IMG/VR virus record: IMGVR_UViG_2703718850_000012
Span: 1-13,677 of that record
Direction: 5' to 3' (one strand)
DNA: 13,677 bases
Source of the DNA: a virus
Lineage: Duplodnaviria > Heunggongvirae > Uroviricota > Caudoviricetes
Position numbers: made by a program. This document shows, in pieces, positions 9,001-12,000 of this stretch. How positions within the stretch are numbered: the stretch's first letter is position 1; every line of letters starts with the position of its first letter.

Positions 9001-12000
9001 AGTAGTTCAAGCGGGGAACATAACCACGTCTCAGGCCGGATAATTTCGCCTGACTGCTTATCCACTTTGGGCGTTACCCAGAAAACACCATCGGCGCGGC
9101 TTTCAACGCGGGGCTTTAATTCATCATCGCCATGGTTTTCTGTGATTTTTTTCTTTAAGGGCAACACCAGACTTTCCCCACGCTCGTATTCGTCTTTCAG
9201 TCGGGCAAGCTGTGGTGTCCAGTCCTCCAGTAGTTCGCCGTTCTCGTCACAAAAACTGACTTCCTTAACACCAGCTACTGCGAGCAGGGTTTCAATCTGT
9301 AGCGCCTGTTTGCCATCCAGCTTTCCGGCACGTCTGACCATGACGCGTAACCGGCCATCATCCACAATACGCAGGTTTTCCAGATTACCCAGGTCACGCC
9401 GTCCGATATAAACGGGCGGTATTTTGTCGCCGCGCTTTCCGGCTTCTCCACCCTGCCTGTAATGTTCTGCGTGGCTGTATGCGTCATCCCCCACAAAAAT
9501 TACTGCTTCCTCACCTTTATCTTTCGGCAATAGTTTTACGTTCGGTGCCAGTTTCATTTTTTACCCCTGAATCCGTTAAGCATTTTTCTTATGGCCTGAA
9601 TATTTACCCGTGCCTTCTCTTTGCTGGTGGGCTGGTTACGCGGCGCAGTCTGTACCAGGGAAAAATCACGCCGGAACTGATAAACAGGCATCACGCAGTC
9701 ATAGCCGTACCCATCACGGCGGTAAGTAACGCACCGTCCCGCCACGTGTTTAATCGTTACTGTGCCGCCGTAGTTATCCCGGAAAATATCGCCGGGGCGG
9801 ATTTCAGGCCGAGGGAGGCCGCTGGCAGTAAAGCCAGAATTTTTCTGTTTCATGGTTTTTATTCTCCGGTGTGATGCGCTTTATTATTCTCGTGAATTGC
9901 CATCACCGTATTTAATTCGTTAATTACTGGCGTTAATAATGTGTGCACGGCAGAAAACATCATGGGATATGATTCATCGCCATTTTCCGGCACTTCCATT
10001 AACTTAAGTAATAATGCCTCCATTTCCTTTGCGCGGATTAATGCATTCTCAGAATGAATAAGAACATCAAAAGGTATTTTATGCATCACACAGTTTCTCC
10101 CTGATTCTTTTAGTGTCCTCATTGAGGATGTCTGTAGCTTTTGTCAGTGAGTTTTTGGTAATTATTTTTATTGTTTTAAATTTTCTTTTGTCGTACTCCG
10201 ACTGTGATTTCCTCTCCATGATCTCTACCATGCAATTTATATCCACAAGCGCATGTATCAGTACTTTCAATGCTTCGCCTGCTGCGTCCGGCGTGTTTTT
10301 ATTGCACATGGCGCACCTCCTGACGAATACGGGCGGCGAATACCATCACGCAGCCATCAGGAGATTGCTGGCGGGCTTCCTGTTCGCTGGTGGCCTCGAT
10401 GTGAATCACGCGCGGTTGTGCCGTGCTCAGGGCGATAAAACGCCAGATGTATTTATTCAGGTTGTGCGAGTCCCGCCCTTGCGGGTGTGTGGTATGATTT
10501 AACATAGCTACCTCGATACTTCTGCTATCGTTGGTGGTTAGAAGCCCCGTTACTGCTCCAACAGTGCGGGGTTTCGTCGTTTCTGTGCCTTGCATCAATA
10601 AGGTGTAAGACACAATGTAAAATAAAAGTGTCTTACACGTCAACCCTTCAAAATAATTTTTTTTCGTGTATATTGTCTTACACCAAAAACATAAGGAGTT
10701 AGACATGGCAACAGGTCCAAAGAATGCAAAATCACAATCTGTAACTGCACGTATTGCCCATGAAATTATTGAAGGCATGGAAAAAGTGAAAGAAGAAGGC
10801 GAAAGTACAGGACAGTTTATAAGCGCAGCCATGCGTGGCGAGATCAAACGCCGCCAGCGCCGCCAGGCCAAAGAATCAGAATAAAAACAACCTGCGCCGT
10901 GGTGTGAGGAACTACGGCACATTGCTTTACAGGACAGCACCATGAATGATAACGAGTTAATAAAAACATCATCACCAATAAGAAAGAAACGGCGCAAAAA
11001 TATAGCGCATGAGTCTGAATCAGACAGATTCGCACCATGTGCTTTTGCTCTTGAGAAATTCCTAAAAGAGTACAGGAAAACGCGCCCATTGCAGGTATGG
11101 CAACGTAACGAACAAAAAGGTTGATGTATGACCAGAAAGCAGACAGATAACAAACCATTGCTACCAGAGAATAAATCAGCGGGATTTTTACCGGAAAAAG
11201 TGCTACATGAGCTAAAATTCCGCCAGCGTAAAAAATCCAAAGAAACAGACAAAGAATAACTTATGCACCAAATACTATACTGGCTCGGATCTCTGTTTGT
11301 ATTTGCATTTCTCATGAAATATTGCATTAGCAATGAACCTGCCGACAATGAAAGTACATGCGGGAGTGCTGAAAAAGATATTCCACTTCTCGTATATGAA
11401 AATGAAAGCCCTGTGCACCGCAATTGAGCGAAATTTAATGAATTCACTCTTTGCCCACCAGCCGCAAATGTGGCATTGTTGGCAATGCTCATGCGTTGGG
11501 GATAACGTGTAGCTTGTGTCGAATGGCCACCGTAGCAGGTGGCCTTTGTTTTGCCTGTTATCCGGCAATTGTGGCGCTTCGTCACACGGTTGATATAATT
11601 CCCCTGCACTGATCCATTTTTTTCGCAGCAGGTTAATTGTTCACAAGGGCGCTCCGGCAACGGGGCGCTTTTTGTTATGTTCATTGCGTTACACCTCACA
11701 CCATTACGCAGCCGTTCCGCGCGCTTCTTCCTCGCGTTCTTTCAACCAGGCCAGCACCTCATCTTCATACCAGCCAACACGGCGCAGACCGATTTTGAAG
11801 CCTTTCGGGAATTTTCCGGCGTTGATCATGTCCTGTAGCGAACTGTCTGCCTTGATGCGCAGAATATTTTTTACTTCCTGACGGGTAAGAATTTTTCTGA
11901 TTACTTCCATCGTGTTTTACCTCGTTAATCCGGCGTATTCCGGTGATAAATACGGTAAAGCAGGGCAGGGCGGGAAAAACAGTACTCACCGTTTTAAAAC

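Follow-up and report, generated by a model that had tools for sequence, protein, structure and literature searches.

Four small genes ahead of the replicase of an Escherichia coli phage satellite: an Icd-like leader cistron, a predicted antisense RNA and a variable gene slot

Upstream of the replicase gene of a phage satellite, four small open reading frames (ORFs) of 68, 76, 75 and 99 amino acids (aa) follow each other on the minus strand of IMG/VR virus record IMGVR_UViG_2703718850_000012 (positions 1 to 13,677). This whole stretch of 13,677 nucleotides (nt) was analysed and is referred to below as the window. The four ORFs are genuine conserved genes, and we consider it rather probable that they make up the promoter-proximal stretch of an early/replication operon in a phage-inducible chromosomal island (PICI), with an Icd-like leader gene, a variable slot, a DUF4222 gene, and a two-way gating of the first ORF. 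The cassette is the PICI version of a known design, in which an Icd-like leader cistron, with its translation as the point of control, heads a coupled string of early genes, and this common leader gene ties the PICI early operon to the immI region of phage P1 and the immunity region of satellite P4. How Gram-negative PICIs are silenced and switched on is poorly understood, and the published model ends at the helper-induced regulator AlpA. The main interest of the string lies in a predicted antisense gate and in the variable slot rather than in the ORFs themselves.

The string was present as claimed in the original prediction: ORF1 (10299..10505), ORF2 (10079..10309), ORF3 (9859..10086) and ORF4 (9554..9853) are followed directly by the replicase gene (7425..9557, 710 aa), all on the minus strand. 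What had been called a primase is a pri-rep replicase of the DUF927/phrog_1139 type. The ORFs had been described as overlapping start-to-stop, which is true for three of the four junctions: ORF1 and ORF2 overlap by 11 nt, ORF2 and ORF3 by 8 nt, and ORF4 and the replicase gene share an ATGA (offset -4), but ORF3 and ORF4 are separated by a gap of 5 nt. The good Shine-Dalgarno (SD) sequences were borne out, since the quoted motifs are in place and the anti-SD duplex energies of ORF1 to ORF4 (-7.2, -11.6, -8.2 and -6.6 kcal/mol) and of the replicase (-6.6 kcal/mol) rank within the top 10% of all 242 ATGs on the minus strand (median -2.8, 10th percentile -6.2 kcal/mol). An alternative start that would lengthen ORF3 to 87 aa (ATG at 10122) lacks an SD (-0.1 kcal/mol).

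A megablast search with the region matched 1908 of 5426 complete E. coli genomes. In four E. coli relatives the NCBI annotation pipeline PGAP calls the same four coding sequences (CDSs) with identical junction geometry, so the conservation in related elements, on which the original prediction had made its claim depend, was found. Pairwise dN/dS values against the window ranged from 0.12 to 0.51 across the four ORFs (ORF1 0.16-0.51, ORF2 0.25-0.44, ORF3 0.12-0.25), and in larger sets of sequences the called frame had the lowest pN/pS of the three frames in each ORF (0.28, 0.46, 0.64 and 0.61 for ORF1 to ORF4; other two frames 0.59-2.6). Because they are annotated in relatives, are under purifying selection in the called frames, have strong SDs, match hidden Markov model (HMM) families (ORF1 and ORF4) and largely conserve their length (ORF3), we conclude that all four are real genes. 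PADLOC defence models matched none of the four, nor any of six other small ORFs of the window. As to gene calling in this region, a 466-aa minus-strand frame at 10299-11699 merely prolongs ORF1 upstream in the same frame, through the intergenic region and opposite two genes of the plus strand, and PGAP over-extends Icd-like CDSs in a similar way in the related strains A36 (125 aa) and 300033 (153 aa).

The original prediction had found none of the ORFs recognisable, which proved incorrect: ORF1 belongs to NCBIfam NF033153 (Icd-like), ORF4 to Pfam PF13973 (DUF4222), and ORF2 and ORF3 match phrog_5146 and phrog_2196, both of unknown function. ORF1, the first cistron of the operon, is by its sequence an Icd-family protein. 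It scores 71.6 bits on NF033153 (cutoff 25, residues 19-62), and residues 18-66 align with residues 11-56 of P1 Icd (BLASTP, 37% identity, E = 1e-7). P1 Icd itself scores 52.6 bits on the same model, matching residues 12-51, and these residues suffice experimentally for FtsZ binding and division arrest (PMC11897509). ORF1 contains the region equivalent to this core, according to the BLASTP alignment, and of the FtsZ contacts that were predicted for P1 Icd with AlphaFold (listed in PMC11897509), R15, E32, A48 and R49 are identical in ORF1. Given its homology to P1 Icd, ORF1 probably binds FtsZ and halts cell division after induction of the island. Another property of the Icd family, a preceding C4-type RNA (Rfam RF01695), was not found: Rfam searches of the whole window at gathering score, and permissively (E<=10) of 10250-11000, returned no C4 and no other family, although the same search does detect C4 in P1, in P4 and in a locus of E. 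coli 300033. A tblastn search against a phage collection gave a single match for ORF1 and none for ORF4, and literature searches on Icd in PICIs retrieved no functional study.

Instead of a C4 RNA, the start of ORF1 carries an ultra-conserved block (~10451-10552) that comprises leader sequence and ORF1 codons 1-18. Over these codons the diversity at third positions is 0.004-0.046, approximately tenfold lower than in the rest of ORF1 (0.17-0.39). The operon has a 5' leader at 10506..10607 (minus strand), of which the 3' half (10506-10552) belongs to the block; in five E. coli loci, too, the sequence immediately ahead of ORF1 hardly varies, although their operators differ. The block is best read as an antisense RNA of ~85 nt, encoded on the plus strand and covering the ORF1 start. 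The predicted RNA (10505..10590) consists of a long stem-loop, SL1 (10505-10540), with an invariant stem and a hypervariable 7-nt loop, a terminator hairpin, SL2 (10541-10575), and a U-rich tail, and it is complementary to the SD (10510-10514) and AUG of ORF1. A predicted extended -10 promoter element, TGgTATGAT (10490..10498, plus strand), lies within ORF1 codons 3-5, and from its position transcription is predicted to start at ~10505, the first base of the long stem. This element (TATGAT or TATAAT) was invariant in 123 of 124 loci.

Several strand-specific signals support this reading. The plus-strand fold of 10505-10592, with its two hairpins and U-rich tail, had a z-score of -4.94, against -1.19 for the sense leader, and the plus strand folded better than the sense strand in all 60 sequence variants, with a mean difference of 15 kcal/mol. 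In the plus-strand alignment 91.6% of the cells were paired, compared to 31-55% in slid controls, and the covariation score of the compensatory changes in SL2 was reached by none of 500 shuffles. Moreover, 78 cells form G.U pairs on the plus strand and 5 on the sense strand, and these 78 become C.A mismatches on the latter. RNAalifold on the sense leader missed hairpin 1 due to a MAFFT misalignment, and folds of the individual variants together with the plus-strand alignment were used instead. Since the fold, the covariation and the G.U asymmetry are all strand-specific, and synonymous sites are frozen over the promoter motif, the antisense reading is favoured, and an antisense RNA not catalogued before appears to lie over the start of ORF1. 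Of 5426 complete E. coli genomes, 1183 contain the conserved block, where no RNA is annotated, and the strains ATCC 25922 and NCTC86 carry it. The leader sequence itself found no match in the searchable literature. A partner complementary in trans to the invariant leader, sought within the window, was not found either. Codons 7-12 of ORF1 contain an invariant GC hairpin (CCCGC-CCTT-GCGGG, 10472-10485), which falls in the -35 region of the antisense promoter predicted here. A boxB/boxA interpretation (nut- or rrn-like) of hairpin and GCUUCUAACCA was dropped, the resemblance being weak and checked by no tool.

The sense transcript would start from a sigma-70-like promoter that is predicted at 10603..10643 (minus strand) from consensus matches only (-35 TTGACG at 10643..10638, -10 TACATT at 10619..10614). 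It is bracketed by a perfect inverted repeat, GTGTAAGACAC, at 10603-10613 and 10628-10638, and a third half-site is found at 10674-10684, at the promoter of a divergent gene for a YlcI/YnfO-family protein (10705..10884, plus strand, 59 aa; NF041551, 67.5 bits). Judging from its position alone, the latter is a candidate for the operator-binding regulator of the operon, and in relatives either the operator sequences or the regulators at this position are different. The three half-sites at the divergent promoters (10603-10684) read GTGTAAGACA(C). The YlcI/YnfO gene and the 60-aa gene that accompanies it (phrog_21027; both within 10705-11124, plus strand) may form the repressor module of the island.

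To place the string among related loci, IMG/VR loci were gathered with an exact 19-mer from the conserved leader, which yielded at least 119 loci, and the ORFs could be walked downstream in 113 of them. The common scheme of these 113 is the conserved leader, an Icd-like gene of 66-68 aa, one to five small ORFs, DUF4222, and an ATGA overlap into the replicase gene. Junction offsets of -4, -8, -11 and -20 recur among the small ORFs, +5 or +6 before DUF4222 and -4 into the replicase, the same offset classes as in the window (-11, -8, +5 and -4). This spacing suits translational coupling, in which translation of the downstream genes would depend on that of the upstream ones. One, two, three, four or five small ORFs lie between the Icd-like gene and DUF4222 in 43, 27, 29, 12 and 2 loci, respectively, and belong to at least 15 unrelated families. 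ORF1 and ORF4 thus anchor the string as its constant members, with a variable slot between them that ORF2 and ORF3 fill in the window. In Edwardsiella hoshinae an identical leader/antisense block precedes a strongly diverged Icd-like gene of 72 aa, the small ORFs are others, and DUF4222 is missing ahead of the replicase. The RNA block thus moves between genera. E. coli 300033 (4493-5150) has two tandem Icd-like genes, the first of which lies behind the conserved leader and the second behind its own c4-a1b1 target element and C4 RNA, so that two control styles coexist in one operon. This C4 RNA was rejected as regulator of the conserved leader, because its target is the icd copy that follows it.

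Neither Pfam nor NCBIfam has a family for ORF2 or ORF3, profile comparisons showed no relationship between the two, and both are confined to Escherichia and Shigella, with 23 clusters for ORF2, all from Escherichia, and 85 for ORF3 at 90% identity. An exhaustive search with the ORF3 family profile retrieved only 14 representatives among 1.84 billion proteins, and no more distant relatives. Relatives of ORF3 (56-99% identity) are mostly 75 aa long, apart from a 68-70-aa subfamily at 56-65% identity and some fragments. The structural model of ORF3 is a confident two-helix hairpin, for which Foldseek found just generic helical hairpins in the PDB, none of them significant (best E = 0.59), and sequence searches of the PDB with ORF4 and with the ORF2 and ORF3 profiles gave nothing significant either. 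With permissive BLASTP settings (E<=1e-3, 25-100% identity), under which many matches cover only ~35-40 residues, 47 of the 113 loci have an ORF2-like gene. The position before DUF4222 is most commonly taken by ORF3 (57 of 113 loci), and otherwise by a distant ORF3 relative (16 loci) or an unrelated 106-aa family (30 loci). Nine alternative slot families that were scanned against Pfam and PHROG are all of unknown function. Because the slot varies in this way, with one to five small overlapping genes from many unrelated families, ORF2 and ORF3 are probably accessory factors that interact with the host or the helper phage, and the slot, now delimited, holds uncharacterised small genes that are natural candidates for factors in the satellite-helper-host interaction. 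An intact ORF2 homologue in E. coli A36 (12698-12925), 99% identical to that of the window, is unannotated in the RefSeq record.

ORF4 matches the full 53-position DUF4222 model at residues 16-68 with 84.1 bits (gathering score 27). Its AlphaFold model, with a predicted local distance difference test score (pLDDT) of ~90 for the core, shows a five-stranded barrel followed by a basic C-terminal helix, so the predicted fold is an SH3/Tudor-like barrel plus basic helix. DUF4222 is a near-constant gene that is ATGA-coupled to the following replicase in nearly all loci, and literature searches on it found no functional study. The replicases come in three lengths (466-471, 582-606 and 707-710 aa) and share an N-terminal domain of ~110 aa (MKLAPNVK...VIIFAG...) that spans the DUF927, the DNA primase family/DUF5906 and the RepA-type helicase replicases; a Pfam scan of this domain gave no match. 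The module boundary therefore lies after the shared domain and not at the start codon. The family in the penultimate slot and the type of replicase assort freely.

The organisation resembles several known systems. In the left (early) operon of P4 (NC_001609), which begins with PLE, the Rfam C4-type CI RNA lies at 8507..8420, with a 65-aa Icd-like ORF right downstream of it (76 bits on NF033153) that is hidden in the old 'cI' CDS, followed by epsilon and orf151, with 8-nt overlaps each, orf106 and the alpha primase gene. Both satellites thus have an Icd-like gene as first protein-coding cistron (76 bits in P4, 72 in the window), then small genes with 8-nt overlaps and a primase/replicase gene, and an RNA regulator at the translation start of the Icd-like gene, which in the window is a predicted one. 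The P4 regulator is a processed C4/CI RNA encoded on the sense strand, whereas that of the window would come from the opposite strand and has no C4 match. ORF2 and ORF3 are unrelated to epsilon, the place of DUF4222 is taken in P4 by DUF5375 (orf106), ahead of alpha, the replicases differ in type, and sid, delta and psu of P4 are absent from the window. The P4 'cI gene product / transcriptional repressor' CDS (8168-8584) in fact consists of the CI RNA and the Icd-like ORF, and the PHROG label 'transcriptional repressor' of the Icd-like families 6196 and 1743 was probably inherited from it, which flags a likely propagated mis-annotation of Icd-like proteins.

In the P1 record the gene order is c4, icd, ant1, with a 4-nt overlap between icd and ant1, and the annotation states that ant expression requires icd. 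The immI regions of P1 and P7 resemble the window in having an Icd-family leader cistron that overlaps the next gene, the expression of which needs icd translation (P1 annotation), and an antisense RNA that is aimed at the icd ribosome-binding site (predicted in the window). They differ in that the downstream gene is an antirepressor rather than small ORFs and a replicase, that C4 is encoded on the same strand and acts via short a'/b' loops on a2/b2 target sites, and that P1 Icd has diverged from ORF1 to the 37% identity given above. The sar RNA of P22 immI and the OOP RNA of lambda are short RNAs from the opposite strand, transcribed from a promoter that faces the regulated promoter. Such phage antisense RNAs base-pair where translation of an early gene is initiated (for sar, this gene is ant). 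The RNA predicted here has no sequence or Rfam relationship with sar and OOP, has a hypervariable apical loop, and would be transcribed from a promoter within the first codons of the gene that it regulates. According to the foundational PICI paper, P4 and PICIs have only AlpA, Pri-Rep and Int in common (PMC6092414); to these the Icd-like gene can be added as a fourth shared gene. A later survey goes no further than naming 'Icd-like' among the common genes of Enterobacter satellites (PMC13612085).

Taken together, we propose the following model. The tight junctions hand ribosomes on from cistron to cistron, and for this reason expression of the whole string would depend on initiation at ORF1. 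This initiation would pass through two gates, the operator-flanked sigma-70 promoter and a constitutive ~85-nt plus-strand antisense RNA that pairs with the SD and AUG of ORF1, thereby doing here what the C4/CI RNAs ahead of icd do in P1 and P4. As long as the island is quiescent, ORF1 would be kept untranslated by the antisense RNA and the operator-bound promoter, and this in turn would keep the downstream ORFs and the replicase off by coupling, and probably by polarity too. Upon induction, sense transcription would outrun the antisense RNA, after which ORF1 would block FtsZ, the slot proteins ORF2 and ORF3 would act on the host or the helper, and DUF4222 would be made stoichiometrically with the replicase. 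The model amounts to a concrete proposal for an RNA gate. A wider version, which we put forward as a tentative suggestion, is that E. coli PICIs, including the capsid-forming ones (cf-PICIs), gate their entire early/replication operon by an uncatalogued cis-antisense RNA, that a hypervariable kissing loop of this RNA sets element-specific 'immunity' groups, and that the slot is a hotspot of new small proteins that manipulate helper or host, among them ORF2 and ORF3.

A number of observations weigh against this model. Coupling is deduced from the arrangement of the genes, of which ORF3 and ORF4 do not overlap but lie 5 nt apart. No -35 element can be recognised for the antisense promoter, which a promoter consensus scan also failed to report, the U-tail of the RNA is interrupted (UUUCGUCGUUUCU), SL1 is almost invariant and consequently yields no covariation evidence, and the 19-mer stretch is invariant in the IMG/VR set by construction, being the selection criterion. 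The identity between ORF1 and P1 Icd is just 37% over 49 residues, and the FtsZ contacts Y24, T47 and S51 differ in ORF1, while S57 and W61 fall outside the aligned region. Finally, a mirror-tree comparison of DUF4222 with the replicase N-terminus gave a Spearman correlation of 0.24 against 0.27 for the linkage control, hence no signal of coevolution. The missing -35 element would fit a block that works on the sense strand only, as mRNA structure, protein or ribosome site, or recombination joint, with no antisense RNA at all. This is possible, though we find it doubtful. The block does hold the SD, the AUG and a C/A-rich unstructured stretch, sense hairpins fold with z-scores of -2.5 to -4.6, and in many genomes megablast homology starts at ~10547, as would befit a module boundary. 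Yet the sense leader as a whole folds no better than shuffled sequence, and the 60 variants and the 78 G.U cells described above argue for the other strand, as do one-sided changes in SL1 (A to G, C to U) that preserve pairing on the plus strand only, and an A-rich flank 5' of the sense hairpin that becomes a U-rich tail only there. Synonymous sites are, moreover, frozen exactly over the TGnTATGAT motif. If the antisense RNA exists, it might serve together with ORF1 as a type I toxin-antitoxin-like addiction or stabilisation module, in which the division inhibitor would be the toxin, the unstable antisense RNA the antitoxin, and the downstream ORFs unrelated passengers. A cis-antisense RNA over the SD and AUG of a toxin gene is the standard type I arrangement (e.g. 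SymR/SymE), and the hypervariable SL1 loop could set specificity. P1 Icd is, moreover, toxic on expression (PMC11897509). We nevertheless regard such a module as improbable, with ORF1 always heading a long coupled operon that ends in a replicase, in place of forming a cassette by itself, with operators at the sense promoter and no PADLOC match, and with the equivalent RNA of P1 and P4 serving immunity and induction control and not addiction.

The remaining alternatives concern the proteins. The original prediction had proposed the small proteins as candidate derepressors, helper-interference factors or replication accessories. In its strongest form the former idea would make new helper-derepression or interference factors, comparable to P4 epsilon or the interference proteins of Staphylococcus aureus pathogenicity islands (SaPIs), and chiefly ORF2 and ORF3, the main point of the cassette; we think this somewhat unlikely. 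Part of it stands, as ORF2 and ORF3 occupy the position of epsilon and orf151 in P4 and sit in a variable slot, whose one to five genes from at least 15 unrelated families, all dark-matter PHROGs, show a typical arms-race pattern, and their limitation to Escherichia and Shigella agrees with it. The other part found no backing, given that neither ORF2 nor ORF3 is related to epsilon in profile comparisons, that no defence or anti-defence model and no solved structure matched, ORF3 being a generic helical hairpin, and that dN/dS values of 0.12-0.46 denote purifying and not diversifying selection. In addition, induction of E. coli PICIs has been reported to proceed through helper activation of alpA rather than through a satellite derepressor (PMC6092414). 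Replication accessories, especially DUF4222 as a loader, an origin-binding helper or an adaptor to host polymerase, are in our estimation unlikely. The ATGA coupling to the replicase in nearly all loci invites this idea, the N-terminal domain common to all replicase types could be the partner of DUF4222, and the Tudor-like fold resembles the RNA polymerase-binding domains of UvrD, PcrA and CarD. Identity of the DUF4222 C-terminal tail also correlates with that of the replicase N-terminal domain (0.43, versus 0.15 for the barrel), but the distance correlation as a whole does not exceed that of the control, the matching folds are of a generic kind, and the Edwardsiella operon lacks DUF4222. That neither the penultimate small gene nor DUF4222 assorts with a given replicase type speaks in particular against accessories specific for one replicase. 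The DUF4222 protein of the window is 83% identical to one beside a RepA-type helicase but only 50% identical to one beside the same DUF927 type. That the ORFs would be chance frames, or spacer 'leader peptides' with irrelevant products, is hardly credible. They are small, and ORF2 and ORF3 lack a Pfam family, but this reading is contradicted by a length, mostly 75 aa with a subfamily of 68-70 aa, that is largely conserved over 56-99% identity, frame-specific purifying selection, strong SDs, HMM scores of ORF1 and ORF4 far above cutoff, and confident models of ORF3 and ORF4.

By its gene content, the window is a Gram-negative PICI-type phage satellite of E. coli. This assignment follows from the presence of an integrase gene, an AlpA-type regulator, pri-rep, SSB, ProQ/FinO, PerC and a Nu1-like small terminase (TerS) without capsid or lysis genes. 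The gene order is integrase (ending at the window edge) and AlpA, the divergent YlcI/YnfO-family gene, the four small ORFs and the DUF927 pri-rep, SSB, ProQ/FinO, PerC and the Nu1-like small terminase, and lastly a PAAR/pyocin-DNase/immunity cargo. Capsid, tail and lysis genes were absent from the ~13.7 kb of the window, and its size is within the ~10-15 kb of PICIs. E. coli PICIs and cf-PICIs of the EcCICFT073 type likewise have int, alpA, pri-rep and a terS-like gene, and several allelic types of pri-rep have been described for Gram-negative PICIs (PMC6092414), while published accounts treat the genes between alpA and pri as hypothetical (PMC6092414). The window does not qualify as a P4-like satellite, since Pfam and PHROG scans revealed no Psu, Sid or Delta family among its ORFs, and its replicase is of the DUF927 and not the alpha type. 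In a close relative (E. coli strain A36) the island is bounded by a split yifB/comM gene, and in other relatives the same cassette adjoins capsid genes, which points to the cf-PICI type. A scan of the window for tRNA and tmRNA genes found none.

Two further features of the island deserve mention. The ProQ/FinO-family RNA chaperone is encoded at 5847-6371 on the minus strand. FinO-type proteins act on antisense RNA pairs, and a link between this chaperone and the predicted antisense RNA is conceivable. The cargo, at 1125-3554 on the plus strand, encodes a PAAR protein of 163 aa, a PAAR/S-pyocin/colicin-DNase fusion of 563 aa and a colicin/pyocin immunity protein of 82 aa, and looks like an effector-immunity set of the type VI secretion system (T6SS) or bacteriocin type aboard a PICI.

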